A DNA stretch of 63,796 nt, filler included, from Licmophora abbreviata (lineage: Eukaryota), in assembly GCA_900291995.1 (NCBI GenBank). It is 14 parts of 14 records of this genome, joined end to end, with 100 filler letters (N's around TTAATTAATTAA, not from the genome) between each part and the next. Parts side by side here need not be neighbours in the genome. Positions count along the whole stretch, not along the records: positions 14,068 to 25,614 come from OLMU01005723.1; positions 25,715 to 27,926 come from OLMU01005724.1; 12 more parts are not named here. One strand, written 5' to 3'. The position numbers and the translations under genes were made by a program. Under the pieces are notes generated by a model, which saw only the letters and a program-made list of their open reading frames with translations, did not search any database and was not told the DNA's origin. Positions 1,726-62,898 of this stretch are shown piece by piece; position 1 is the stretch's first letter; every line of letters starts with the position of its first letter.

Positions 1726-4700
1726 ATGAACAACGACGCACGCGGCGGGAATACGGAGGGTACCATGGAGGACTTCGAGTGGAACGAGTCCAAGAGCGTT
1801 GCTACGGCTTGGTCGACGACTCAAGGCCGATCCAATAAGAGCAGGAGAGCGTATGGACGCCGAGACGCCAGGAAGGGTGTTGCGTACGGCTCCAAGCGCG
1901 GAAACAAGAAGAGAGCGCTCCAGGAGCGACTCAATGCTGCTCAGCAAAGCGGCGGCTTTCTTTCGGACCAAGGAGGTCTCTCCGACAGCATGAGCAGTAT
2001 TGAACGAGCGTCCTCGTCTTCTACTACCTTTGATCTCGCTCGTGGTCATCCCTCTCGTGTGGCAGCGGCAGCACCGCCGCTTCCTCGGCCGGAACGCATC
2101 GTTGGTGGAAGTCATCACAAGCGGTCCAAGTCGATCGGGTCGTCCCTTCCCATGTCGCTTTCGACTCCCTCCATGCAGCGATCTAACTCCGTCGCTGCCA
2201 GCTCACCGTCGCTTCCTGCTTCATCGACCTCCAGCTCGTCGCTCACCGACTGGAACGAGAACTTTGATCCAAACCAACAAGATGAGAATCTCATGCTTGC
2301 TTCTCTCATGTCACCGCAGCCACCGGTCAAGCTCAAAAAGATGCAGACGACGCCGGTCCATGTCGACATGGACGACATCGATGGAACGGAACGACGTCGG
2401 AAGCTTCGATCGAAGAGCCTTCAGGATTCTCCGTCCTTTTCATCTCCTGCAAAGAGCACCTTCTCGCTCTTGGCAAAGGAGAATGCCGAAACCGCAGTCG
2501 CGTGGGTCAAACCTCCCAGTCTGTCGCCCTCGAGGTCCTTGGCGAACAGCTTTGGCTTGGATATGCGTGATATTGACCAAGGCCGTCGACTGTCGTCCAC
2601 CCCCAGTGTCTCCACGAGCAGCGGCAAGCGAGGCGTCTGCGGATCGCCTCTGGGCGACGAACGCGAAGATGTCAGTTCTACCTTTTCCTACAACCAGTCG
2701 TCCACGTCGTCGTTTCAATCCAAGTCGCGATCCCGAATTTTCTCTGATTCCATGTTCAAGACGGTTGGTGCCCCGACTCTTGTCAAGCACGATCGTGCCA
2801 TGCAACAAAACCCCGATGACGACGATGATAGCGACAAGGATTCTGGTGCCGACGACGAAGCCTCCGACAATGGCTCCTACGATAGCAGCGGCGACGGCAT
2901 GGAAATGGACACTAATCTTGGACCTCCCATCGGTGTGCGTCGCCGGTCCTCCGCCAACTTTGACGAATCTGTCTTTGGGCGAAAGGAGCGAAAGTCTTTC
3001 TCGACTNNNNNNNNNNNNNNNNNNNNNNNNNNNNNNNNNNNNNNNNNNNNTTAATTAATTAANNNNNNNNNNNNNNNNNNNNNNNNNNNNNNNNNNNNNN
3101 NNNNNNGAATCTGTCTTTGGGCGAAAGGAGCGAAAGTCTTTCTCGGCTGACGACGTCTCTGAAACCATGTCGTCGTACGACGATTTGAAGTTCCTGATCA
3201 AGGCGCTTCGCAAGGAAAAGAAGGGAACTAATTTATCCTCGTTTGGAGTTAGCAAGGTCTGGACTGTGGCAATTCCGCCCATGTGGGCGTCCGATCGACG
3301 CAGGACATTTCTACAATGGTCCACCAGTCTGCTTGGCTTTCAGCTTCGCCCGGGTGGAGGGTCGCTCACATTTCTCCAGATTGCCGTGTCCAAAGGCAAC
3401 TCCGTGCTTGGTCAACTGGAGACCGCCCTCCTAGCTCATAAGAAAAGCGAACAAGAACGACCGAAGGGCATTCCCTGGACTGTGACCACCACGCAAGCGG
3501 CTCCACCAATGCTCCTTCCCGTGTCCACGTCCAAGCCACGACAGACCCTCACCGCGACTCAAGGCGCTCGACCTCGTGACGATAGCAGCAAAATGGAGAT
3601 GGACCTGCTCCTCGGAATAGAGTCGCTCGCCATTGCTGAGAGTGAGCCAATGGAGGAAGAAGAAAAACCACCAGACTCGTCCGTAAATCCTTTGGTACGT
3701 CTTGTCACTATGGAACCAACCGCTGAAGGACTGGGAGTACCCCCAGCCCCTATCAGTAGCGTTGATCCTTCGCCGTGTCGACCTAGCTTTGGAAGTTATC
3801 AGGGCGCTCGACCGCGCCTATCGGACGTGGGCGGGCAAGATATGATGATGCACATTCACGGATTCAGTCCCAATGTGGGACGTCCTCCAAGACTCTCCAC
3901 TTCAAGCGTCCACACGGTCGCTAGCAATCGTCCGAGTGGCCTGTTGCCTCGTGGTCATATGTCTCCGTTTGCGCCACCTCATAGCGCGTCAAGCCGTGGC
4001 GGGCAGACGAGCATTACATTCACCGAAACGTAAGTTCTCGTGGCGTGACGGCTTTCGAGGTTCTATTCTATGGAAACTCACCTCGTGCGTTCTATCTTCT
4101 TCAAACAGACCGCTGATGAAACGATCTGGCGACGTTGGCTTGCGGGCGTCGGGCTGTCGAGACTGGGGAGCGTCAGAGCAGTGCCCGCAGCCAATCATTC
4201 ATGAGTTGATAGGTCGCGTCGAACTTGCATTCAGAGCTTCGGGTACGTCGTTAATGATGGTAGACTAGCGCTGTTCACACTGCTTGAGCGACATGTTCCT
4301 AACACGAAGTGCCCTTCTCGCTTGATGCCAGGATTCGCGTGTGAGTCGCCTTTTGCAGCACTCGACGATCAGGCTGCTTCGGGTTCAATGCCTACGGACT
4401 TTTCAAGCACCGCTGTCAACTCATCTGATCTTGGCTTCGATTTTGAAGTCGACAAAACCGACGAACATTGCATTGTCGAGGGGGACGACGAGGACGAGGA
4501 AGAAAACGCAGACGAATCACTATCGATTCCGAGTGCACTGCTTCCTCTCGTTCGACGTGGCAGCGTCGGCGCCACGGCTCTTGCCGGACTCAGTTTGAAT
4601 GAGGAAGCGCAAGTGGGTGAAGGAAAGCTGAGACGTCGTCGCATGCTCTCTTTCGCCAAGCACAGACGGGTTTCGCTGTGTACAACGGCACTACCCGCTG

Positions 4701-8592: not shown

Positions 8593-9770
8593 ATGATGCC
8601 GACGGAGCGGAACGACGCCATGTTGGATGGGCAAGATGCTTCTGTTGCTTCCAATGAAGAAGAGACAGGCCGAAGGCGACGTGTATCTGATGTGCAAGGT
8701 CACCAGTCTGCAACCGAAAACGATGACAGTGACGGACGACTTTTTCCGGAGGATCTTCCTCGTCCCTCAAGATCCGCTGTCGCTCATAGTGCTACCGGTA
8801 GTGCTGATGATGATGCCAATGGCGGAAGCCAAATCATGGAAAAAAGTCCTACCTACGATGATGCTCATGAAACTCCAGTGGCTGATTTTTCGTCGAATCG
8901 AACCGACGCGGTGGACTGTATTGCAGTGAGTATCGACAGCGTCACTGCTAGCACGACACCGGACCGCCCCCGTGCGGACAACAGTATTCCCAAATCCACG
9001 GAGAGGGCTGCTGCGATGCTACCTCTGGAGCAAGAAAGAATAACACAAAATCAAGAAACGCCTCCTATTGACCCACAGGACACCGACGACGACGTCCAAC
9101 GCGACGCCGCGACGGAACGAGTCGCCTGTCTCGTTCACATCTTCTTCGCCTTTTTCGCCTTCTTGACGGGTGCAGTGGTACTCTTGTGTATTTCGATCGT
9201 GTCACACTACGGCATTGTTGTCTTTCTGGCACTTTCTGTCTTTATTCTCCTCATGGGAGGAGTCTTTTATTTGCTTGACGGCATTCTCAAGGACGATGCC
9301 AACTGGCGACCAGTTCGACGACGTATTCATCATTGGAAGGCAGTCGCCGCCAAAGTTGTGCTGGATGAAGTACGACACTTTCAGCTAGACTGGAATGCGC
9401 ACTTGTTGTTGACAGATGGAAGAGTGAACATGTATGAGGAACAAGGGAACAATGACTCTATCGATGAACAGCCGAAGAAGAAGGCCAGGGGGAAGAGTNN
9501 NNNNNNNNNNNNNNNNNNNNNNNNNNNNNNNNNNNNNNNNNNTTAATTAATTAANNNNNNNNNNNNNNNNNNNNNNNNNNNNNNNNNNNNNNNNNNNNCT
9601 CTATCGATGAACAGCCGAAGAAGAAGGCCAGGGGGAAGAGTGTCGTGTTCAAGGTGGTCAAACCGTTCTTGCGGCCCTTTCGGGGTCGACGAAAGCTCAG
9701 AAAGGAAAGGGAAGCGGCTGCAGCAGCGCGACAGCAACGAGGGGATAGCTACATCCCGCCCGTCATATAG
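8593..9770 (+). CDS. Hypothetical membrane protein (acidic disordered N-terminus, two transmembrane segments, basic tail)
   Basis: ATG at 8593 and two hydrophobic segments (VACLVHIFFAFFAFLTGAVVLLCISIV; GIVVFLALSVFILLMGGVFYLL). The flanks of gap 9499-9598 overlap and continue as ...GKSVVFKVVKPFLRPF...YIPPVI* with TAG at 9768-9770. Confidence 0.65.
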
Positions 9771-11667: not shown

Positions 11668-11840
11668 GGCGGCTTTTTGTTTTGGAATGTTTAATGTGCA
11701 CGGCCTCGTCGTTGCTTCTGTGGACGGACGACTGTTTTGTNNNNNNNNNNNNNNNNNNNNNNNNNNNNNNNNNNNNNNNNNNNNTTAATTAATTAANNNN
11801 NNNNNNNNNNNNNNNNNNNNNNNNNNNNNNNNNNNNNNNN

Positions 11841-13786: not shown

Positions 13787-14455
13787 AAAGAATCGTGTGT
13801 GTTTGAAGGAAGATTGCCGTCAGTATAAAAGTGGTTGCGTCTTTTTAACTTCTTGTTGAGATATACGAACAATACTAAAGATGGCTGTTGATTCGACTTA
13901 CGACTGAAGGTGTTTTTTGTAAAGAAATGCACGATACGCATCGAGCCGATATGTAAGGGGTTATTAGNNNNNNNNNNNNNNNNNNNNNNNNNNNNNNNNN
14001 NNNNNNNNNNNTTAATTAATTAANNNNNNNNNNNNNNNNNNNNNNNNNNNNNNNNNNNNNNNNNNNNGGCATGTTGGGGGTTTAAAGAGAGGCGACTCAA
14101 AGGAACATTGCTCTCCATGTCCTCATCGTAGTCGACCGATACACTGCCTGCTGATAGCGCTGTGGTCGCCGTGGTTGCGATTCATTCTACGAGCGTCGTA
14201 CTGACTGTCTCATTCGAAATTATGAGTCGAAGGTGTCGGATCGATCGAGACATGAAAAGTCATATCAAAAACGTCGCTCGTGAAGAAGAAATGACTCTTC
14301 GTTGACGCAGTACGAAGTGCACCGTAGAGAAGGCCCGACGCGCTTGCACGTCAGAATAAATCTGAGATCACAAAGCCCTTGAAGATCCGTCGATCCGAGA
14401 ACCAAGGCTCTCTTGTCAATGTACATGAAAGCACCAAAAGCCGCTTCGATTCACG

Positions 14456-20370: not shown

Positions 20371-22736
20371 CTAGCGAGAAGTAGTGCGAGCGTGCTGCGG
20401 AGGGCTTCGCGATGAGTCCAGGCGACTTCGAGACACACGCCTGTTGCTAGCTACTGTGTGCAACGAACTTCGTGGTGACCGGAGTGAGCGTCCGATGGAA
20501 CCAGCCGCAGATTGAGCGGATGACATGAGAATGTCTTGCCAAGTCATGGACCGACAGCTCTCGTACAAGGAAAGCGTCTCTGCTTGCTCCTGGGTGTAAG
20601 CGCCTTCGTGCACGCTCGGCGGACGGGCAGATGGTACTTCGGGGTGGAGGCCAGCGTACTGTTTGAGGCGCCCAATCTCGTTCTTCAAATACTCCATATC
20701 GACTTTGAGATAGTCCATGTCGTCGGCCAGCTCGTTGACAGCCGTCTTTCTTCTCTGACGAGTTGACATGCACTGTTGGAACTTATCCTTGCCCGACTGA
20801 AACTTCCACCAGAACAGAAAGTACAAGGTCCCTAGGCCAAAGAGTAGCAACAAGAAAACGCCGAGAGCGGTGAATCCCGTACCACCTTGATCGAAGCACA
20901 CGGCGATTCCGAGCAGAATGAGTGGCAAGACGAGGAACGCAACGATGACAAACACCAGCGGAAAGCCACGCCATGAGCGGGTGACCCGGCCGAGTCGACG
21001 CGCTAGCTTCAATGGGATTCTGCGCATAAATGGTATCGGATACCACATAAGGATGCCGGTCAGGTTGAAAAACAAGTGGACGAGTGCCACTTGTAGCGAG
21101 TCTACGCTGTTGCTGACCATCGCCGCCATGAGGGCCGTAAAGGTCGTGCCAATATCAGCCCCAAGCGTCAGGGGGTACATTTGCTCCAGTCCCAATACCC
21201 CCATCCCAACTAACGGGACAAGTGTTGAAATGGTAATGGAAGAACTCTGAACGAGAACTGTTGCCCCGCATCCGATTCCCATGGCGATGTATCCGTTGAT
21301 ATTCGTCGCCTTGTATATTATACGTTGCGATGCGCCCAGCAACATGTAGCGGAGTAGCGTGACAAGTCCGACGAGGCAAGCAATCAACAAGACGAGCGCA
21401 TAGATGAGACACACCCATCCCGATATTGAGTCATCTTTCTTGCTTGCCCTATCCTGAAAGAATGCAGGGCAGTTATTTGTCTTTGAGTCGCACGCGATCA
21501 GTCCTGTGGAGCACGAACTGAAAGATTCGACGCCCCCCTCGCACTCGACCGGGTAATAGTCTTCGCAGCCAAGCGTACCGCCGCTACTGGCAATGTCATC
21601 CATCATGTCAGTGTTTGCAATGATGATAAGATTTCCAAGTGGCGATACAATCTTCTTGATTGGCCCTTCCCACTTTTCGCCCTCGCCCACGTCGGACGGC
21701 AGCATGAGCTTTGTGAGTTGGAAGAGATATTGAACGGATACTTCGAGTGGAAAAAGGACGCAGACTGTAAGGACTTTGAAGCACCATACCACGGAGCTGC
21801 CTACATGATTTCAAGAAACCAGCCGACACCTTTGTTAAGATGATGGACGGAGATGAGAAACAGTGCAGGCGAAGGTGCGTGACGTACCTGCAAACGCGCG
21901 TTGCAACTCGTCGACATCGCCCATGTGCGCCAGCGACACGAGCAGGGCTGTAATCGCTGTTCCGATATTAGCTCCCACTGAAATGAGTGAATGTGAAGGA
22001 GTGCTTGTGAGCGACTACGAGCACACTCCCATCGCATAGTAGCTGCGATGGACACAACGTCGCTTGGGTGACACTTACTAACGATATAAATGGCGGTATG
22101 AACATCGAGTCCGCCGCTGACGAGAGACACGACAATGGCAGTCGTCGTAGAAGATGACTGTAACACCGCCGTCGCCAGAATACCCACCATCAAGCTGGCC
22201 ATGGGATTGGCGTCCGACCCCAACAGTGATTCGGCAGTGCATCCCCCGACCACTCGGAAGCTACGACTGAGCAGTTCGAGCCCAATCAAGAAGCAATAAA
22301 GTAGAAACAAGAGTATAAGCACTGCGAATCCAATGTACATCCATTCTCGTGATGTGTGGCAACAGCATGCGGTAAGGACGTCGTGCCATGAGACCGGCTC
22401 GCTCAAGTCTAGCTCGTCGGAAGCGACGCTCTCGATGTTATCAATGAAAATCGGCGGCATCGAGTGCTCTGACAACGCGAGATTCTGTGGTGCAGTTGGC
22501 GTCGGCTGATGCTCGACATGCTTACTTCGCTCCGTCATGGCTAGAGCAGCGTCATCATCTTGAGTGCCATTCTGAAGAGGATGTTCCATTTCGACATCAA
22601 GTACAACATTTCTCATTTCGGCCGGGGGAGACAAAAATCGAACCGAGCCGGTTCCTTCTTCCGCGGCCGAGAGCTGGGACGAAGTCCGTCGTCTAACTAT
22701 GTCGTTCGCTGAGGGTCGATCAGTGTTCGGGGGCAT
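20371..22736 (-). CDS. Sodium-dependent phosphate cotransporter, SLC34/NptA family
   Basis: Two QSSS repeats (VLQSSSTTT, LVQSSSITIS), plus MGANIGT (after splicing) and LGADIGTT, and VALVHLFFNLTG. Introns 22078-21978 and 21887-21801. Confidence 0.95.
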
Positions 22737-23203: not shown

Positions 23204-23641
23204 CTACGTCCTCGACGGTGTGGCTTGCGCCGTGAAGACTGACGGAATGTCCCATACTTCTGTGATTCGTCCGTCGACGATACGCCACACGACGACCACC
23301 TCTGTTTCGATTCTTTCATTTCCCAGTATCATGGTGTTTCGAGTATGCGCCACGACCAATTCGTCTCCGACGGCCTCGACAGATAGCGGCTCCACGTGAA
23401 AGGTTCCTTTCGTACGTTTGCCCATTCCTTCAAAGAAAGCGTGGACGCCTTTTAGACCGACGTAGTCGCCCTGTACATCGGGTAGCTGGGGGTTGAAGAA
23501 GTGAAAGACGACATTGTCAGAAAATGCGTTCTTGGCGGTACTGATATCGGAAGGGTCGAACTTCTGTAGGACAGCAATGTTCGGATGCTGATGCTGGGGT
23601 GCCGCTGCTGCTGGGTTCGAACTGTTCCTGGGATGTTGCAT
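23204..23641 (-). CDS. SnoaL-like / NTF2-fold protein
   Basis: FSDNVVFH...GDYVGLKGVHAFF...VGDELVVAH...VVVWRIVDGRITEVW is a typical SnoaL/NTF2 pattern. Intronless. Confidence 0.85.
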   Translation of the reverse strand: MQHPRNSSNPAAAAPQHQHPNIAVLQKFDPSDISTAKNAFSDNVVFHFFNPQLPDVQGDYVGLKGVHAFFEGMGKRTKGTFHVEPLSVEAVGDELVVAHTRNTMILGNERIETEVVVVWRIVDGRITEVWDIPSVFTAQATPSRT

Positions 23642-24272: not shown

Positions 24273-27208
24273 TCAAACACTCTTGACGGCCCTGACGGCC
24301 CATTTCTTCCAGACGCAATATCCCAAGACCACCGCTGCAATGGTCGCCATCTTTTCAAAGCTCAACGCAAAAGGGATAACGATCAAGTACAAGACGGCCG
24401 ACAAGAGAAATTCGCTCTGGAGCTTCGCCAAATAATTGAGGACTGCAATGCCAATCTGAATTTGATCCAGAACATTGAGAGTCGCAATACCCACCTGAAC
24501 TGGCTTGGAATGCCCATTCTCATTGTACTCTTCATTCTCACAGCCAAAGAGACCACACCACAAGCGGATGGGCTGCGCGGCCGCGTGCTGGATCCACTTC
24601 TGCTCTTCGGGGGACAAGTACTTGTCGTAGGGAGAAGGGAGGGCAGTGTAGATCGAGGCAACCACGCCGTTCACGACAAGGTTTCCAGTTGCAGTCAATG
24701 GCGTGTACTGACCAAGACTCGTCACCTTGCTGATCGACTTGACTTTCACGGGGCGCCCCTCGTGTTTGGAGATGAGAGCGTCGCCAATTTTGACCTCGGA
24801 AGCCGGGACGACAATTTTCTTGTTGGTCTGGTCATCGTATACGTACAAGAAGTGCTCGCTGGAGATTTCAAGCGGCTTGGTCATGGTATCGGCAAGAATC
24901 TGAAGGTATTCGGTCATGTCGTTGGGGGCAGCGTGACCAAAGCTGTAGATCTTGGAGTATGTGCCATCAGCCGTCAAGACTGAATCACCAATCTTCAGGG
25001 CGTCCATTCGAGTAATACCCGCACCTTCCACCTGGACTTCGTCGACGCCGGGAAAGCAAATATGGGGTTTCTTCGGTGGATCGGTACTAGTATCATCGAT
25101 GATCTCTTCGGTGCCATCCTTGTCCTCGGTGGGGAGATTAGTGGGAGTACAGGGCAGAGCGCTCCCATCTTCTCCGACAGTGATGGAAAATCCTTCGTCG
25201 TCCACTTCACAGGGTTCATCTTCTCCTTGCGACGCAAAGCCATCCTCATTGACCGTGATCAAAGCGCTTCCCAGAGCCGTGGCCCCCGATGCGCTTGTGA
25301 CACGAAGAAGTACGACCCCGACAAAAGCAGTGTCGTACGTGAACATGGCCTCGGGCTCAATAGTTTGGACACTGTAGTCGCCATCTCCGAAGAAGCTCCA
25401 CTCGTAGAGAACGATTCCAACGCCTTCGGAATCGTACGAGCCCGATGCATCGAAGGTGATGGGAACGCCCACCTTTCCGGAGTAGGCGATGCCCAACCAG
25501 GCAAAGGGGCTTCCAGAAGCACTCGCGATGACTTCTGATATCGTCGCCACAACGTCTCCGCCAGCGATGATGCCGCCTCCTGTAGCAGCAGAGATTGCGC
25601 TAACGAACCCCCCCNNNNNNNNNNNNNNNNNNNNNNNNNNNNNNNNNNNNNNNNNNNNTTAATTAATTAANNNNNNNNNNNNNNNNNNNNNNNNNNNNNN
25701 NNNNNNNNNNNNNNTCCCACATCAGCTCCGGTCACAGCAACAGGGTCGAGCGCAATGCTCTCGGCGATAAGTTGGGATGCAGTCAGGCCAGAGATAGGCT
25801 CTGCTCCAGAGACGACTTTCGCCTCCGCGTCACCAATTACGATCATGATTTTGGTGGCACCGCTGGTCCAAGATAGGTCGAGGGCTGCTTTGATACCAGA
25901 GTAGACTGTCTCTGGACCATCACAGCCCCCACTGGCAACGAGCGAGTCGATTCCGGCTTGAATTAAAGACAACTGGTTCGTAAAGTCTTGATCCACGCGA
26001 GCTGGGTAATTTCCTGAGCAGAACTCAGGGAAGTCTTTGTAGGAAACCACAGCCACTCGGAAATCAGATGTCGCAGCCGCGAGCTCAGCCACAAGCGTGG
26101 CCAAGTTATTGCGAACGTCGGCAATTTCACCAGACATGGAACCCGTTGTATCGACAACAAAGGCCATGTCAATACTACCGCCATTGTCAAATGCACCCGG
26201 TTGAGCATCGACAATTGAGAAAAAGGCTGAGAGGGCCTCACCGAGTTGGGCGTGGCCCTCTGCGTTAAAGTGATACCACTCCGGCGGCGTGAGGCCATCG
26301 AACTCCCAAATCCAGCCATCTTCGTTTTCCGATAGCACCGATGGATCGGGCTCGCGTCCTTCAAAAAGCTCCTTGGTCCCATCATAGAAGATCGCAAAGT
26401 CGCGTCCAACTTCAAGGTTCGCGGCTGCAACCGCATTTCCCTGGCGTGCGTCGCCTTCTTCTTGCAGAGCGTAGAGGGCATCTCGGACATCGATCGAATC
26501 ACTGCCAATGATGTCTGTGAGCGTGTATGTCGTATCAAGGAGAAGATAGGGATACGAAACGAGAACAACCTTGGCGTCGTTGTTTAACTTCGCGGAAATG
26601 GCTACCAGAGCCTCGGTGATAGTATCTTGGAGATCAGCCAGTGCATCTGCGGCGGCCATGATGTCTTCGCGGCAGCCATCGACATCGCGAGCACCCAGGG
26701 CAAAGCAGTTCTCCACAATGCTTGCAAACCCCAGATCGTTTGCACCGAACGTCAGGAGCACAAGATTGACACTCTTGTCGATGGCGTTGATCTGCGGAAA
26801 GATGTATCGTCGGCATGCCGTGCCTAGCAAGTCTCCGTTGTCTTGGTAGAACTCGTCTGTGTTGTCAGGCGTCGGACAGTTACCTGAAAGAGACTTGGCT
26901 TCTAGATCTTTCTCTTGCGGACCCAAGAGTGCGGAAAGCTTGGCCCCTGAGCATGCCTTGTTAATGAATGTGACACGGAACACATCCCGGAGGGAGTCAG
27001 CAAAGTTCTCACCCCAGCTCGTAGGACTGCGGAAACAATCGCGGACTCCAACGTAGTTACGATTTCCACTCTCATCACGTGCTCCGTTTCCGGCCGAGGC
27101 CGAGTCACCTAGATGGACAATCTTGAAAGGAGGGAGCTCTTGGGACTGGCCGGTCGGAAGGCCCAGCAGGCCTACCAGAAGAAAAAGACGGCGCGAAGAT
27201 CAAAGCAT
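24273..27208 (-). CDS. Signal peptide - SGNH/GDSL hydrolase - vWA - PKD-like - Hedgehog-type Hint - TM protein; in-frame TGA at codon 3, possibly a pseudogene
   Basis: SGNH blocks HLGDSASAG (upstream of the listed ORF, same frame), ACSGA, TFGANDLGF and WYHFN. vWA MIDAS-like DMAFVVDTTGSM. PKD-like ITFDASGSYDSEG..YEWSFFGDG. Hint CFPG...LKIGDSVL...SSEH...TPLTATGNLVVNGVVAS. The vWA end (SAISAATGG) resumes after gap 25615-25714. Confidence 0.88.
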
Positions 27209-28295
27209 CACAAGCGGACTGTAGAGGATTTGTCAGATGGAAGTTGGTTCTTTCAAGCACACCTACCGATATCTTGAGCTTCTTCCTTTTTGATCACTTC
27301 AAATAACACAACAATGAGAGAACAAAGAAACGATCACATGAAATATCACGAAAGAGCCAGAATCGAAGCGGCAAATTTCTGGTTCAAATTCAGATATGTA
27401 TGAAAGCATTCGAAGCATGCCGTGTGGAACTGAACAGAATCTCTAATGCACGCCATCATCCGATCGTGGATCGTGTACTCTGAGCTGCGACTTAAGTTTC
27501 AAAGTCGATAGTCAGGCGTAGGACTTCGTACAAGTACAACTGCCTCTCGAAATATTTGGACTTCCAAACTTTCGGCCTTTAAATTTTCATTTAAATATGC
27601 ACACACAAAGGAAGATTCTTTGCCTCTTTCCCCTATACAAGCTCGGGACAAATGTCTACCTGGACCGAAGTTGTTCTTGGTCGTATCGTACCTGGGAACT
27701 GTACCTTGGTAGGAGTCCTTGCAACTTCAACCTTGTCTCAACCGGGACTCTCTGGCTCCGCGCGTTTCGAATATCGGAAGCAAGACTGGAATTTCAAAGT
27801 TGAAAATTCAAAATTCGGTATCTGGTACCCTGGAAATATTCGTAGTGAATAGACTGCAGTTCACTGTATACCAGGCATGAATCGAACCCAATGGCGTATT
27901 GTGCAGCATGAATGTTCTCGCACTCTNNNNNNNNNNNNNNNNNNNNNNNNNNNNNNNNNNNNNNNNNNNNTTAATTAATTAANNNNNNNNNNNNNNNNNN
28001 NNNNNNNNNNNNNNNNNNNNNNNNNNGCTGCCGCGGGAACATCAAGGTCGAACATAAGAGAAACACTTGCGAGAACCGCATCGGAGACCTGCCAAGGGCT
28101 GCAACAAAATCATAAGACTAATGTCTCATGTCTTTTTCTAATGACGTTCGACGCACGACAAACTACTGCGTCCATGTACGTCATACTCGTGACCCGTCGA
28201 CATGAAATGGTCCACCCTGACGAAGACAGAAGTCCCAGTGCCGGTGACGAGACTGAACAAGATGAGTTCTAACATGGACTGACAACTCTTGACTA

Positions 28296-33964: not shown

Positions 33965-35281
33965 ATGACTCGCATAATGGTCGCTTGCTGCCTAATCCTG
34001 ACTCTTCTTCTTATCGCTGTCGATTTGACCGATTCACTCCAAGCCCGGATGACTGGCTATTCGTTGCGAGAATATCCTGGTGCGATGTGTCTTGATGGGA
34101 CGCCGGGAATGTACTATCATTTTCCTGGAACTGGCGACGGAATTTCTAAATGGTACATTGAAATGCAGGGGGGAGGCTGGTGCGGAGACTTTGATCACTG
34201 TCTTGACAGAGCCGACACGCAACACGGCTCGTCGTCAACATGGCCCCCGCTTCAGACTGTGCACACTCCATTCTTCAGTGACGACCCGAAGGAGAACTCG
34301 CTTTTGCACAACTGGAATAAGGTCTACTTTCGTTATTGTGATGGCTTTGGTTTTTCAGGAAACGTATCGGACCCTGTGGAACGAGGTGGTGCGATTCTCC
34401 ATATGCGCGGACACACTATCCTGGAGGCAGGGATTGATGATATGCTTCACAAGAGAGATCTTTGGCAAGCGACGGACGTTGTAGTGGGTGGATGCAGTGC
34501 CGGCGGCTTGGCAACGTTTTGGCATTGCGATCGTTGGGCGGAGCGGATTCAGCGATATTCGCCTGCAGTCAAAGTGGCATGTGCCCCGCAGTCGGGGTTC
34601 TTCATGAACTATAAGGGTAAATCGGACCGTCCCACCTACAATGACCTGATGAAGGAAGCCTTTGAGTTTCATCAACCAGTCTTGTCCCACAACTGTCTGG
34701 ACAAGGAGCAGTCTAGCCCCTTAAAGTGTGTCTTTGCCGAAAATGCCGTCCAGTACATGACGACCCCCGTCTTCGTTATGCAGCCTATCTTCGATTCTTG
34801 GGCTAGAGGGGCGATTCGTCTCAGCGATAACGATCCGATCGAAATCAACAAATTTGGGGTCAGTGTAGTCGAACGTGTTCTTTCCACTGTCATGGACAGT
34901 AGTGCGACTAGTGATCAGAACGGTGTCTTTTTGGATTCTTGCAAGAGACACTGCGGCGGATACGATGTACGGATTGGTGGCACAAGCAAGACTGAGGCTT
35001 TGGCAAAGTGGTATAAGCGGGAAGCGCAGAAGAGCGTTTACGTGCAACACGAAGAGTATAACTGTGAAGTATGCTGCGATGCCTCTTTGGGGCCGCTCCC
35101 TCCTTCGAGTTCGCCTAGTGTTTCTACGCCATCGTCTGTTTGGCCGACGTATGAGCCTCTGGAAGTGGATCCTTTTCTTGAAGGAGTACATGTCTCAAAC
35201 GGACGTCGTACGGGGAGTAGTGGTACCGCTGCATCCCTCATGTTACTTTTGGTAGTTTTGATGTCGTCCGTGCTTGAGTGA
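33965..35281 (+). CDS. Pectinacetylesterase / Notum-family secreted esterase, probably GPI-anchored
   Basis: Signal peptide; CLDGTPG.Y, QGGGWC, NWNKVYFRYCDG, nucleophile GCSAGG, FDSW and DSCKRHC. Ser/Pro linker and C-terminal hydrophobic tail. Confidence 0.93.
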   Translation: MTRIMVACCLILTLLLIAVDLTDSLQARMTGYSLREYPGAMCLDGTPGMYYHFPGTGDGISKWYIEMQGGGWCGDFDHCLDRADTQHGSSSTWPPLQTVHTPFFSDDPKENSLLHNWNKVYFRYCDGFGFSGNVSDPVERGGAILHMRGHTILEAGIDDMLHKRDLWQATDVVVGGCSAGGLATFWHCDRWAERIQRYSPAVKVACAPQSGFFMNYKGKSDRPTYNDLMKEAFEFHQPVLSHNCLDKEQSSPLKCVFAENAVQYMTTPVFVMQPIFDSWARGAIRLSDNDPIEINKFGVSVVERVLSTVMDSSATSDQNGVFLDSCKRHCGGYDVRIGGTSKTEALAKWYKREAQKSVYVQHEEYNCEVCCDASLGPLPPSSSPSVSTPSSVWPTYEPLEVDPFLEGVHVSNGRRTGSSGTAASLMLLLVVLMSSVLE

Positions 35282-35611
35282 GAGGTTTTGCGGGCTGGCC
35301 CAAGAATGGCGAGAGGGTAGCTAACGCTCATTCATTAGCTAGAACGTTTCATACCCACAATCTAGTAGTCCGTTGACGACTCTATCGACCTCGCCTTTTG
35401 TGCTGAAATGGATACTTCACGATGTATAGGCGCTGTACACCTGTACCGAAGAATGGGTTCTGTCGAGTGCTTCTGTTTTAGGCGATGTGACGGCCTTTGT
35501 TGCTCTGTTGGNNNNNNNNNNNNNNNNNNNNNNNNNNNNNNNNNNNNNNNNNNNNTTAATTAATTAANNNNNNNNNNNNNNNNNNNNNNNNNNNNNNNNN
35601 NNNNNNNNNNN

Positions 35612-41214: not shown

Positions 41215-41871
41215 GAGGAAATTCAATGACTGAAATACCAGGTACGGTTCCTGGAAAGTAAAATTAGCAACTGTGGGTCGTCTCAGACTGTTCTAGCGTC
41301 ATCGACAATTCATCCAGCCTCTGCAGGATGCCACCAACGACTTGGCAATGCCTCTTGGGCCCGAGATTCAGCCAGAAGATTCAAAGAGTTGAGTTTGCTC
41401 ACGCCAGTCAACTGTGATCGATTGCTGTGTCTTCCTTCGCGCCAGGTTCTTCTCAACTCAGTTTCTCTAAGTTCTGAATTCAGGAACTCAGATACCGATG
41501 TCTTCGGTAATGAAGTAAATTGGTATGCTAAAAGAATCTCTTCAACACGACGTGATGTATGTACTCGTAGGTCGCGTTGAAGGCTCCACGTGGCAATAAT
41601 TTCGCACCCCGATGTTGAAGCGTCAGCACTTTGGCGCCAAAATTTGGATTGCTCTGGGTTCCATGGCATGACACAATCAAAACAGACTGCAGACCACCAC
41701 TGGACTCCAAGTCCAAACTTACCGTTGCTATCNNNNNNNNNNNNNNNNNNNNNNNNNNNNNNNNNNNNNNNNNNNNTTAATTAATTAANNNNNNNNNNNN
41801 NNNNNNNNNNNNNNNNNNNNNNNNNNNNNNNNCCAAGTCCAAACTTACCGTTGCTATCGTTGGTGGAAGTC

Positions 41872-52704: not shown

Positions 52705-52888
52705 NNNNNNNNNNNNNNNNNNNNNNNNNNNNNNNNNNNNNNNNNNNNTTAATTAATTAANNNNNNNNNNNNNNNNNNNNNNNNNNNNNNNNNNNNNNNN
52801 NNNNCCCCCCCCTGATCCCCAGCCGAGTCGACACTCGATCTCAGAAAATACTTCAGAAGTGATGACGTCGGGCTCATCCTCTCTGAAG

Positions 52889-54761: not shown

Positions 54762-54861
54762 NNNNNNNNNNNNNNNNNNNNNNNNNNNNNNNNNNNNNNN
54801 NNNNNTTAATTAATTAANNNNNNNNNNNNNNNNNNNNNNNNNNNNNNNNNNNNNNNNNNNN

Positions 54862-57572: not shown

Positions 57573-57672
57573 NNNNNNNNNNNNNNNNNNNNNNNNNNNN
57601 NNNNNNNNNNNNNNNNTTAATTAATTAANNNNNNNNNNNNNNNNNNNNNNNNNNNNNNNNNNNNNNNNNNNN

Positions 57673-60600
57673 ATCTGACGAGTCTGACACACTTGCACGA
57701 ACCCGAGGTCGTCTTTTGTTTGAAACAGCGGTATGCAACCGACACTATTTACACGTACACAGGGAAGATTTTGCTTGCTTTGAATCCGTTTCGAGTTTGT
57801 CAGGATCTGTACGGAGAAAGCGTCATGCAGCGCTATTGGGATGACACGACCAGAGAACGACCACCGCCTCATATTTATGCGGTTGCACAAGATGCGTACG
57901 GGTCCATGTTACGAGCCATGGAACTAGGGGCCGAACGTTTCAATCAGTCTATTCTCGTCTCGGGGGAGAGTGGGGCGGGAAAGACAGAAACAACCAAGAT
58001 TATTATGAGATATCTTGCTGCCATGTCACGTCGACATGTCGCAACCGAAGACCCGGAACATCGCAGTGCGGCAGGGGACGGAACGGGGATCGAGTCGCAG
58101 GGTGAGTGTAGTGCTACACTCCTTGATCGCAAATTGAGTCACGAACTTAGCTCACACATGAATTCCCAGTGCTTCAATCGAATCCAATTCTGGAATCTTT
58201 TGGGAATGCCCGCACCGTACGAAATGACAACTCGTCAAGGTTTGGAAAGTTCATTGAGATACAGTTTCTGAAGTCTGGGTGCCTCGTGTCAGCATCGATC
58301 GAGACATACTTGCTGGAGAAAGTACGACTGATCTCGCAGGCGCCGGGCGAACGAAATTTTCACATTTTTTACGAGCTCCTGTCCGGCCTCCCGCAGAAGG
58401 AACGAAAGGAGCTTTGGATTGGGAACAAGACAGCAAAGGACTTCCGAATTACTTCTGTATCGGGGACGTTCGACCGACGGGATGAAGTGAACGATCGAGA
58501 CACATACCGGGATTTACGGAAGGCTTTGACGACGATCGGCTTCTCGCCATCTGAGCAAAGAGACTTGTTCAAGGTGGCATGTGCGATGCTGCACGCATCG
58601 AACTTGGAATTTGTTGAGACATCGTCGGATTCATCACATCTGGATCGATCGAACCAATCGCTGCGCCCAGCGCTCGACCTCCTTGGAGTCACACATGATG
58701 ATCTAGAAAATGCGCTCTGTCTTTGTGCCATCGAAGCCCGAGGAGAAATATTATACAAGAATCTAACTCTCGCAAAGGCGAGAAAGGCATTGGAAGCGCT
58801 CATCAAAGCATCATACGGGGCGCTTTTCACCCATATCGTCCAGAGAGTCAACAGTTCCATAACTCTCCATCCTAGAGAAAAGGATATGATGAATGGTTAC
58901 ATTCAGTCGGGGCAGGGGGCAATCAATTGTCTCGACATCTTTGGTTTTGAGAGTTTCAAGACAAACAGTTTTGAGCAACTGTGCATCAACTACTGTAACG
59001 AGGCTCTTCAGCAGCAGTTCAATCGATTTGTGTTCAAGCTTGAGCAAGAAGAGTACGAGCGGCAAGGTACGTGACTTTCTTGCGGTCTTGTGAGATATTG
59101 TTGCAATCGGCTGAGTCGACTGACTTCAAGGACCTTCTGTCGACTTCACAGGAATCGCGTGGTCGTTCATTTCCTTCCCGGACAACCAAGACATTCTTGA
59201 TTTAGTTGAAGGGAAAAAGCCAGCGGGTCTAATATCTATTCTCGATGAGAAGTGCCGGATCCCACAGTCATCTGATATGATGTTCGCACGGGCTGCCTAC
59301 GAAAAATGCGGTGATCATCCCCGTTTCGAGGCATCCAACGCTCAAAGGGCGTCTGGGGCGTTCTCAATTCACCACTACGCTGGGAAGGTAGAGTACGACA
59401 CAGCAAATTTTCTGGAGAAGAACAGGGACGAACTGTCAAATGAGGCAACGAATCTACTCATTACCTCCACTAACGCATTTGTATCGAGCCTCGGGAATTC
59501 GCTAAATGACATTCCGAGTAAGCTTATGCGGAGCCCGAGTCCGGTCGTTTCTTCTGTGTCGGAAGCAAGTAGCAGTGCCATGAGCGCAACAGGGTTGTCA
59601 GGTGGACATCTGCTGCGTCGCTCGTCGAGCTCGCTAATGCACGACAGCGTCGGTACTCAATTCGCAAGACAACTGCGCGAGCTTCGCTTTCGCATTGAAG
59701 AGACGACTCCGCACTACGTTCGATGTCTCAAACCTAATGATGACTTGGTCCCCGATAACTTCAATCCAGTTGTTATTGGCGACCAACTTCGGTGCGCGGG
59801 AGTGCTCGAAGCCATCCGAGTTTCGCGCGTGGGATTCCCACATCGCTACAGTCTGGACGGTTTCGTTGAGAGGTACCACATGCTGGCAAGTGATACGATG
59901 GCTCGCTTCTCTCATATTCGGAAAGGGAAAGACCTTTGCGAACTTCTCGTCAAGGCAGTGGGGATGCAGGTTGACGAAATGGAGCATCTTCAAAACGAGC
60001 CTCGAGATGAGAACGGAAACTCTTCAAGCCAGAGGTACGTGTCTCGATGCCAAAACATTGGGCAAGGTTTGTCGTTTCGTGTCACTGAAACTCTATCCCT
60101 TGTTTCTCTTTGATCTTCCTCTTACGCGACCAGTCTAGGGATACAAGTGGGGCGTGCCAAAGTGTTTATTAGGAAACAGGTGTTTGAGACGCTCGAATAT
60201 CTTCGTCGACTAAAGTCAGAAAATGCGGCGACGACCATGCAAACGTTCACCAGGAGATTCTTAGCTCGTCGGAACTTTCTTCGGTGTATGGCAGGAGTTG
60301 TCACATTGCAAACTTTCGTACGAGGCATCCAAGCATCGCAACTGGTCTCGCATTTGAGATTGAAGAGATCCGCCTTAATTGTCCAGTGTGCTTGGCGAAG
60401 AGTGTTGGCGGAGCGCTACTTTGAGGCAGCACTTACTGTCGCGCAGTGGGGCCAAGCGACGCGACGTGGGATCGTCGCGAGGGAGATTTGCGCANNNNNN
60501 NNNNNNNNNNNNNNNNNNNNNNNNNNNNNNNNNNNNNNTTAATTAATTAANNNNNNNNNNNNNNNNNNNNNNNNNNNNNNNNNNNNNNNNNNNNCGCGAG

Positions 60601-62525: not shown

Positions 62526-62898
62526 NNNNNNNNNNNNNNNNNNNNNNNNNNNNNNNNNNNNNNNNNNNNTTAATTAATTAANNNNNNNNNNNNNNNNNNN
62601 NNNNNNNNNNNNNNNNNNNNNNNNNAATCTGCTAACGTCGCATCGCTGGAGTATGATCACACATCATCATGGTCGTGAGATGAGTCGAGACATCTCTTTT
62701 TCTTCGCGTCTCACGACTACGTCACTCGTGACAGCGTCGTCCCGGGACTCGATTCATTTTTTCTTGACCATTCACGGGTATCTTCCGAGCGACGGACAGA
62801 TCTGACATTTCTTTTCTTCGCGTCTCGCGCGCCAATGGTTTTGTTTTGTTTTGCCACGCGACACTTTTCTGTTGTGATGGCTGTGGCAGCAATGGACC

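Follow-up and report, generated by a model that had tools for sequence, protein, structure and literature searches.

How a secreted enzyme cassette of bacterial type came to share a reading frame with the self-processing module of Hedgehog proteins, and what the joint product would do, is the question raised by positions 24273-27208 of a stretch of DNA from Licmophora abbreviata (GenBank assembly GCA_900291995.1). The stretch as a whole, hereafter the window, measures 63,796 nucleotides. The product encoded on its minus strand (27208-24273) starts with a predicted signal peptide, continues with SGNH esterase, VWA and PKD-like domains, a two-cysteine module and a Hint domain, and closes with a helical region and a hydrophobic tail, in this order. 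On balance, this is probably a real nuclear gene of a diatom-type eukaryote, composed of a bacterial cassette (~680 residues) and a diatom Hog module (the last 261 residues), and the Hog module appears to occupy the place at which the closest relatives of the cassette carry a short hydrophobic C-terminal tail. An earlier note on this DNA, made from the sequence alone, had proposed such a fusion of a hydrolase cassette with a Hedgehog-type Hint domain; the elements that it listed, together with their coordinates, were borne out on the minus strand by Pfam and by alignments with PDB entries.

The gene is divided between two contig pieces. The start codon (27206-27208) gives an N-terminus that matches the signal peptides of the homologues P0170 and P0173 in length and position; the frame from this ATG reads Met-Leu-stop and is afterwards open up to a spacer at 25714. 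A second open frame extends on the minus strand from 25613 to the TGA stop codon at 24275-24273. Apart from the TGA at codon 3, the remaining 940-plus codons are open and all catalytic motifs are intact. The interval between the two frames (25615-25714), which the earlier note had treated as an ordinary gap, proved to be an artificial contig joint made of 44 N, the all-frame stop linker TTAATTAATTAA and another 44 N. It adjoins a G7/C7 run (break at seven G) and is one of 13 identical 100-nucleotide spacers by which 14 contig pieces of 1.2-11.5 kb are chained into the window. The N half of the gene lies alone on a 2.2-kb piece, and the PKD-like domain, the two-cysteine module and the Hog module lie in one frame on an 11.5-kb piece with no spacer between them. 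Both halves align with the same bacterial-type homologue of 923 residues, P0003, the N half with its residues 16-534 (39% identity, E 2e-106) and the C half with its residues 549-699 (36% identity, E 2e-16), and closer cassette relatives (57-72% identity) span the joint with ~4 residues (alignment A1). Because the homologues run colinear across the joint, only ~3-5 codons should be hidden by the spacer. The order, strand and register of the pieces agree with the homologues to within a few residues, and by this alignment the cassette and Hog halves are one gene, as the earlier note had assumed.

In what follows, residues of the N half are numbered in the translation starting at codon 4 (27199) and those of the C half from 25613 (residue 1), both on the minus strand. 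The first domain of the cassette is the SGNH/GDSL esterase-lipase domain (26231-27121), with Pfam matches to Lipase_GDSL (E 3.9e-9) and Lipase_GDSL_2 (E 2.5e-8) over N-half residues 27-323. The blocks G31-D32-S33 (GDS serine at 27103-27101), N154-D155 (GxND) and E307-x-x-H310 are invariant or more than 90% conserved in 61 homologues; with blocks I, III and V in place, the domain is a predicted SGNH/GDSL hydrolase. The AlphaFold2 (AF2) model of the N half reached a predicted local distance difference test (pLDDT) value of 90.6. The best structural matches of its esterase part were secreted SGNH enzymes of Streptomyces, namely phospholipase A1 4HYQ (TMt 0.76), lipase 5MAL (TMt 0.78) and also esterase 1ESC (E 1.6e-12 to 1.1e-9); the identity to these enzymes is only 20-21%, and the window esterase of ~300 residues, against 234-302 in the Streptomyces enzymes, is fused to VWA-PKD. 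By sequence, the cassette matched no PDB entry at E up to 0.01 and no NCBIfam family.

The VWA domain (25515-26170, minus strand) is split by the spacer. Pfam reports VWA_4 (E 1.5e-11, N-half residues 345-470) as well as VWA_2 and VWA, the motif D350-T-T-G-S354, of the DxTxS metal-site kind, is nearly invariant among the homologues, and the model fold is closest to integrin beta I-like domains; the domain is thus described as a VWA domain with a putative metal site of the MIDAS (metal ion-dependent adhesion site) type. The PKD-like, immunoglobulin-type domain that follows (25251-25508, minus strand) had been called PKD in the earlier note. This is backed by the PKD chains of ColH collagenase in the PDB (E 5.5e-5), by PF18911 (PKD), which is present on most cassette homologues, and by conservation in the bacterial homologues, although the match of the region itself to Pfam PKD_4 (E 3.3e-4, 21.1 bits) falls under the 27-bit gathering cut-off. 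The cassette is closed by an acidic two-cysteine module (25098-25250, minus strand) in which both Cys and several more columns are invariant in all seven aligned sequences, two bacterial-type ones included; what had been taken for a free acidic linker is instead a conserved part of the bacterial-type cassette. A junction linker of 13 residues (25059-25097, minus strand, delimited by alignment) ends in His-Ile before the putative cleavage site. Similarity to the Hint-less relatives stops at this linker, where the hydrophobic tails of those relatives start.

A search with the N half yielded 79 homologous proteins. The closest cassette relatives were P0170 (705 residues, 72% identity), P0173/P0227 (70% and 84%), P0210 (63%) and P0171 (57%), which keep an identical domain order through the two-cysteine module; none of them has a Hint domain. 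With the exception of P0173, which breaks off inside the VWA domain, they end in a hydrophobic, Cys- and Phe-rich tail of ~30 residues, and P0196 (54% identity over 86% of the query), the tree partner of P0171, likewise ends in a hydrophobic tail. P0173 and P0227, each with a longest contig of 2,915 bases, probably come from one contig; the break between them falls within the VWA metal motif, which an intron or a frameshift could explain. A larger set of relatives at 45-57% identity includes P0174 (55%), which NCBI records under a metagenome-assembled genome (MAG) of Candidatus Zambryskibacteria (Patescibacteria; 57-kb contig); FHA domains form the C-terminal end of many of its members. In prokaryotes, scanned with one genome per species, 504 cassette relatives were obtained. 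The full GDSL-VWA block was found in a Chloroflexota MAG (46%), in Ilumatobacteraceae, Gaiellaceae, Acidimicrobiales, Cellulomonas, Baekduia, Nocardioides and Actinoplanes (36-40%) and in Saccharibacteria (32-34%).

The cassette tree, in which 15 named genome loci and 59 database proteins stand beside the window (75 rows), was calculated in a quick search under LG+G4; locus L098 (7 stops in the translated stretch) and database proteins of fewer than 600 residues, except P0173, were left out. The window and P0173 are sisters (support 95) in a five-row clade with P0170, P0171 and P0196 (support 100, stem 0.41), and this clade belongs to a ten-row set (support 99) that is nested among named bacterial rows of the Actinomycetota and Chloroflexota. 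In the Atlas clusters nearest to the N half, all members with a record (100%) are bacterial. The nesting, the Atlas clusters and the Streptomyces-like fold of the esterase sustain the bacterial affinity that the earlier note had expected, and its expression 'actinobacterial-style' was a fair one. From the style of the signal peptides, the tails and the split gene call P0173/P0227 we infer that the five-row clade is eukaryotic. Descent of the cassette from a bacterial surface-protein family by horizontal transfer forms part of the proposed history and is held to be probable to the same degree; the source bacterium most likely belonged to the range of Actinomycetota, Chloroflexota or Patescibacteria.

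The Hedgehog-type Hint domain (24639-25058, minus strand) was recognized by Pfam, by PDB sequence matches and by its modeled fold. Pfam Hint (PF01079) matches C-half residues 181-325 at E 8.2e-29, and the PDB sequence matches are C-terminal domains of Drosophila Hedgehog (6TYY, 7.9e-8; 6TD6, 8.7e-7; 1AT0, 1.9e-6). Aligned to Hedgehog, the motifs are those that the earlier note had described. Cys186 (25058-25056) of HI/CFPG, where the stroke marks the expected cleavage site, is the first residue of the module and aligns with the Hedgehog nucleophile Cys258. Ser251-Ser-Glu-His254 (SSEH) aligns with Thr-Pro-Ala-His, retaining the T-x-x-H motif with a conservative Ser for Thr. At the position of Hedgehog Asp303/D46, the general-base Asp is replaced by His227 (FGH), and at that of Cys400/C143 in the Hedgehog motif ASCY, the motif-J Cys is replaced by Ile321 (ASIY, which ends at 24648).

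Modeled with AF2 from 89 sequences (pLDDT 90.9, predicted template modeling score (pTM) 0.79), the module has the Hint beta fold, then three short helices, a loop with Cys and two long helices. Foldseek placed 6TYY (TMt 0.87, root-mean-square deviation 2.1 Å) and 1AT0 (TMt 0.86) ahead of inteins and bacterial intein-like (BIL) domains. The three short helices (model residues 154-181) and a loop with two family-conserved Cys form an adduct-recognition-like region (24507-24638, minus strand); in this part after the Hint domain, His343 is kept in 147, Cys353 in 153 and Cys358 in 156 of ~162 relatives. The two long helices (24276-24506, minus strand; model residues 195-222 and 226-270) follow, the second of which holds a membrane segment and a basic C-terminus; the hydrophobic core lies at 24306-24413, with a hydropathy peak of 2.13. 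Other assignments of the module were considered and rejected. No match to Vint (PF14623) appeared at E up to 1, and the only other Hint-type match was Hint_2 (E 0.21). An intein is excluded by the C-terminus, which lacks His-Asn and has an Ala-Ser-Ile-Tyr end followed by a family-conserved tail rather than an extein, and a bacterial BIL domain is ruled out by the motifs and Pfam.

With the last 265 residues as the query, 4,990 cluster representatives passed an E limit of 1e-3 and 121 a limit of 1e-30; the Hog match stands at the C-terminal end in 150 of 150 relatives, the best 150 listed. The Atlas clusters nearest to the Hog module are wholly (100%) eukaryotic; few of their members have a record, and the phylum most often given in these records is Bacillariophyta. 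Judged by these matches, the Hint domain and the tail are part of a large family in which all members with a name are diatoms, in line with the affinity predicted in the earlier note. In a Hog tree (150 rows, FastTree) the window module stands on a long branch with P0007 (54% identity) nearest and no well-supported small clade, for which reason the tree is silent on the donor of the module. The Hint domain is reported to have expanded strongly in some pennate diatoms; a 2025 genome paper counts more than 290 genes with the Hedgehog Hint domain in Pleurosigma pacificum, 112 in Seminavis robusta and few in other diatoms. Beyond domain counts, no functional study was found in the literature on Hog or Hint in diatoms (subscription journals lay outside the coverage).

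The catalytic pattern was counted in 163 relatives, the denominators being the relatives that reach each column. The nucleophile Cys1 is found in 127 of 130; among 161 relatives, 158 have His at the D46 position, 160 have Ser (85) or Thr (75) at the T69 position and 160 have His72. The C143 position holds Asn in 104, Ser in 34, Thr in 10, Cys in 6, Val in 5 and Ile in 3 relatives, so that 156 of 162 are without Cys there. The residue before the nucleophile varies (Ile in 15/127, Gly in only 7/127), and a strongly hydrophobic 19-mer follows the conserved region in 130 of the 152 relatives with a full tail. FGH and ASIY, which the earlier note had pointed out as departures from Hedgehog, are therefore not special to this gene and represent the rule across the diatom family (His in 158/161, Cys absent in 156/162).

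A domain scan covered 75 relatives of at least 400 residues that were among the best 150 Hint relatives or had been found earlier. All 75 contain Hint, and 16 have a recognizable N-terminal Pfam domain (E up to 1e-5): DUF285, PG_binding_1, Ephrin_rec_like, trypsin (four proteins), PBP_like_2, amine oxidase, fasciclin, DUF7107, jacalin, Lcl_C, rhodanese, pectin acetylesterase (P0143) and Cu2 monooxygenase. Given these recognized enzyme cargoes, an enzyme on a Hog module is ordinary in the diatom family. P0036 (798 residues) has two tandem Hint stretches.

GDSL, VWA or PKD at E up to 1e-5 was found in none of the 75 scanned Hog relatives. A 'longer' search for full-length relatives returned four proteins, two of them with the cassette and none with Hint. 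In metagenomes, a first scan for a cassette-Hog fusion found nothing, and in a second none of 80 loci had a Hog module (best E 0.28). Because such collections sample eukaryotes poorly, the absence of the fusion elsewhere is weak evidence. In these searches, this exact fusion was found nowhere else and reads as a new cargo for a known kind of Hog module, although an enzyme on Hog as such is common in the family. A literature search found no paper on this domain combination, and nothing on this gene under the terms of diatom horizontal gene transfer and GDSL.

Because the four closest cassette relatives are without Hint, a Hog graft is the simplest history, and to this extent the idea of an acquired enzyme grafted onto a eukaryotic module, put forward in the earlier note, stands. 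The tails of the relatives (small residues, then ~30 hydrophobic residues to the C-terminus) look like a glycosylphosphatidylinositol (GPI) attachment signal, and the GPI-like tails of the sister genes sit exactly where Hog begins in the window gene. With GPI-like tails in the sister genes and anchoring ends of other kinds in the bacterial members, the cassette would seem to depend on a membrane link at its C-terminus, which the Hog module may supply.

The following course of action is proposed for the product. The predicted signal peptide (22 codons, 27143-27208, minus strand), read from the sequence and from alignment with the N-termini of relatives, has two Arg, a 10-residue hydrophobic core and small residues before Gln23; it would take the protein into the endoplasmic reticulum. 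There the C-terminal helix, its short basic end facing the cytosol, would tether the Hog module to the membrane. Cys186, with Ser251-x-x-His254, would turn the Ile185-Cys186 peptide bond into a thioester, which would then be attacked by a hydroxyl nucleophile activated by His227. The outcome would be a freed ectodomain of ~680 residues, with a lipase-like enzyme, an integrin-like VWA domain, the PKD-like domain and the two-cysteine module, and a Hog fragment that stays in the membrane. If the nucleophile were a membrane sterol or another lipid, a lipid-anchored surface lipase would result; if it were water, a shed enzyme. Self-cleavage of the Hint domain is considered likely; given cleavage, transfer to a membrane lipid and hydrolysis appear about equally probable, with a slight preference for a lipid. 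A lipid nucleophile is suggested by the membrane tether and by the conservation of both the general base and the helical region with its two Cys. The position of the GPI-like tails in the sister genes is a circumstantial point on the same side. The D303H/D46H swap in Drosophila Hedgehog keeps structure and cholesterolysis and widens sterol tolerance (PMC9163320), and D46H human Sonic Hedgehog still processes in cells (PMC12054796); by analogy, the His at the D46 position would be a competent general base. The earlier note had proposed a non-cholesterol nucleophile. Because a His there keeps cholesterol transfer in Drosophila Hedgehog (PMC9163320), the exchange of Asp for His is no argument for such a nucleophile.

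Some observations weigh against this account of a transferred cassette on an active Hog module, in part by favoring other explanations. The closest cassette relatives carry no taxon record, their eukaryotic status being deduced from the tails and the like, and the cassette tree is a quick LG+G4 search. That 14 pieces make up the window, with the N half alone on one of 2.2 kb, would suit an assembly or scaffolding artefact in which a bacterial contaminant was joined to a diatom gene. Such an origin is very improbable, given that the PKD and two-cysteine parts of the cassette are in frame with Hog inside one piece without a spacer, and that piece order, strand and register fit the homologues as described above. 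The G+C content at third codon positions (GC3) of the cassette (0.55-0.58) lies within that of the neighboring genes (0.54-0.62), that of the Hog part being slightly higher (0.66-0.67); the cassette, with a composition like that of its neighbors, is therefore not contamination. The 11.5-kb piece also carries a SnoaL-like gene, an Na/Pi cotransporter, a metallophosphatase and a bZIP-like open reading frame (ORF), an importin-like ORF is found on the next piece but one, and the genomic surroundings are a eukaryotic nuclear context. A further difficulty, passed over in the earlier note, is the in-frame TGA at codon 3 of the window copy (27200-27202, minus strand; translation ML-stop-SS), with no further in-frame ATG upstream of the catalytic GDS block, from which one might conclude that in the sequenced strain the gene has recently been disabled and become a pseudogene. 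With the other 940-plus codons open and the catalytic motifs intact, this is unlikely, and metagenome data point the same way. Contigs from four runs were aligned to 25715-27400, where six short pieces matched at 99-100%, covering parts of the interval. Codon 3 is TGT (Cys) in one X2 contig (study P2) and in one X3 contig (study P1), both near-identical to the window and each at a depth of only ~2; position 27200 is T in the window (plus strand) and A in both contigs, corresponding to TGT on the minus strand. Because the contigs of two marine metagenome studies read TGT, the codon-3 stop is attributed to an assembly error or a strain allele. A 151-base X3 contig (record 5) matches 27181-27270 and then continues with 61 unlike letters into the signal-peptide region; it could be a low-depth chimera, an allele or a paralogue with a common 5' region.

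The remaining difficulties concern the chemistry. Position 143 is Ile in the window, and Cys occurs there in only 6 of 162 relatives. In Hedgehog, C143 forms a branched thioester in a precursor construct (PMC12054796), and C143A and C143D abolish the processing of human Sonic Hedgehog in cells (PMC12054796, 2025). Together with the beta-branched Ile, rather than Gly, before the nucleophile, this would agree with a Hint domain that no longer cleaves and serves as a folded stalk, the tail being a permanent membrane anchor. We regard such a loss as unlikely too: it would leave hard to explain why the nucleophile Cys, Ser/Thr-x-x-His and the His base are kept across 163 relatives with unrelated cargoes, 15 of 127 relatives likewise have Ile before Cys, against only 7 with Gly, and protist Hog domains are commonly without the motif-J Cys (PMC2362128). 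Rather more plausible, if still doubtful, is cleavage by hydrolysis only, which would make the module a shedding device and the product a soluble lipase-adhesin without a lipid adduct. The gene has no counterpart of the second catalytic Cys of Hedgehog, adducts are not known from any Hog protein outside animals (Burglin 2008, PMC2362128), and the Pfam Hint match ends at model position 163 of 213, short of the sterol-recognition region; in some relatives the Pfam Hint matches extend to model position 207-212. Plain hydrolysis would need none of the features that the family has kept, namely the general base (158/161), the helical region with two Cys and the membrane tether (130/152).

Compared with known systems, the gene is closest in plan to the Hog proteins of protists and animals (PMC2362128). 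In both, a signal peptide and an unrelated N-terminal cargo precede a C-terminal Hint domain that begins at Cys and is followed by a further conserved region; in both, new N-termini are readily acquired and the motif-J Cys is often replaced. Burglin 2008 (PMC2362128) reports that Hog genes readily gain new N-termini and that Ser, Thr or Asp takes the place of the motif-J Cys in protist Hog domains; in non-animal Hog proteins, the region after Hint was named 'adduct recognition' because the adduct was unknown. Diatom names are absent from the searched parts of that paper. The window gene differs from those proteins in its cargo, a three-domain enzyme-adhesin cassette of bacterial type, in its membrane helix with a basic tail and in its His for the general-base Asp. 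It resembles the Hedgehog C-terminal domain (1AT0; 6TYY, engineered D46H) in fold, Cys1 and T/S-x-x-H, and its His at residue 46 is the same as in the active engineered D46H/D303H Hedgehog, whereas it is without Cys143, without Gly before the nucleophile and without the Hedge domain, and has a transmembrane tail. The bacterial GDSL-VWA-PKD proteins (e.g., P0174) have the same domain order through the two-cysteine module, 33-55% identity over GDSL-VWA and the catalytic and metal-site residues in common with the window; they differ in ending in FHA domains, helical extensions or tails resembling sorting signals. VWA-Vint proteins (Burglin 2008, abstract) likewise combine VWA and Hint within one protein, but the window Hint scores PF01079, and its VWA domain is part of the bacterial cassette, with PKD and the two-cysteine module between VWA and Hint. 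In the insect gene oskar (PMC7250577), a horizontally acquired GDSL-like domain and a resident eukaryotic domain made a new gene. The parallel is an analogy only; oskar differs in partner domain, organism and biology.

The gene would display horizontal transfer and domain grafting in one reading frame, with a bacterial surface-enzyme cassette placed on a eukaryotic self-processing module. The wider interest lies at the level of the family, with its natural His base, its missing C143 and its membrane tether. For Hedgehog biochemistry, more than 150 sampled relatives naturally bear the His base that was once engineered into Hedgehog, and almost none has Cys143; if diatom Hogs cleave, the branched intermediate would be dispensable in that lineage. 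For diatom biology, the Hog module may explain the release or lipid anchoring of many secreted enzymes. It is possible, although we put it forward only tentatively, that diatom Hogs are a distinct natural class, membrane-anchored, with a His general base and no branched-intermediate Cys, which would ester-link secreted enzymes and adhesins to membrane sterol or lipid as an alternative to GPI, and that the gene described here was caught swapping a GPI-signal-like tail for Hog.

The further spacers of the window should be borne in mind in any use of its other genes. Spacers 1-7 are located at 3007-3106, 9499-9598, 11741-11840, 13968-14067, 25615-25714 (the one discussed above), 27927-28026 and 35512-35611, and spacers 8-13 at 41733-41832, 52705-52804, 54762-54861, 57573-57672, 60495-60594 and 62526-62625; any gene that crosses one of them needs an equal check of colinearity. 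The Hog module described here is the single one in the entire window. An ORF of 438 residues at 33965-35281 (plus strand) encodes a pectin acetylesterase (PF03283, E 3e-69) without Hog, although P0143 carries a member of this enzyme family as its Hog cargo. Directly downstream of the fusion gene, at 23204-23641 (minus strand), stands a SnoaL-like (NTF2-fold) ORF of 145 residues. The adjacent ORFs at 20371-21792 and 21801-22736 (minus strand) both match the Na+/Pi cotransporter family and are probably one gene with a short intron or a stop.

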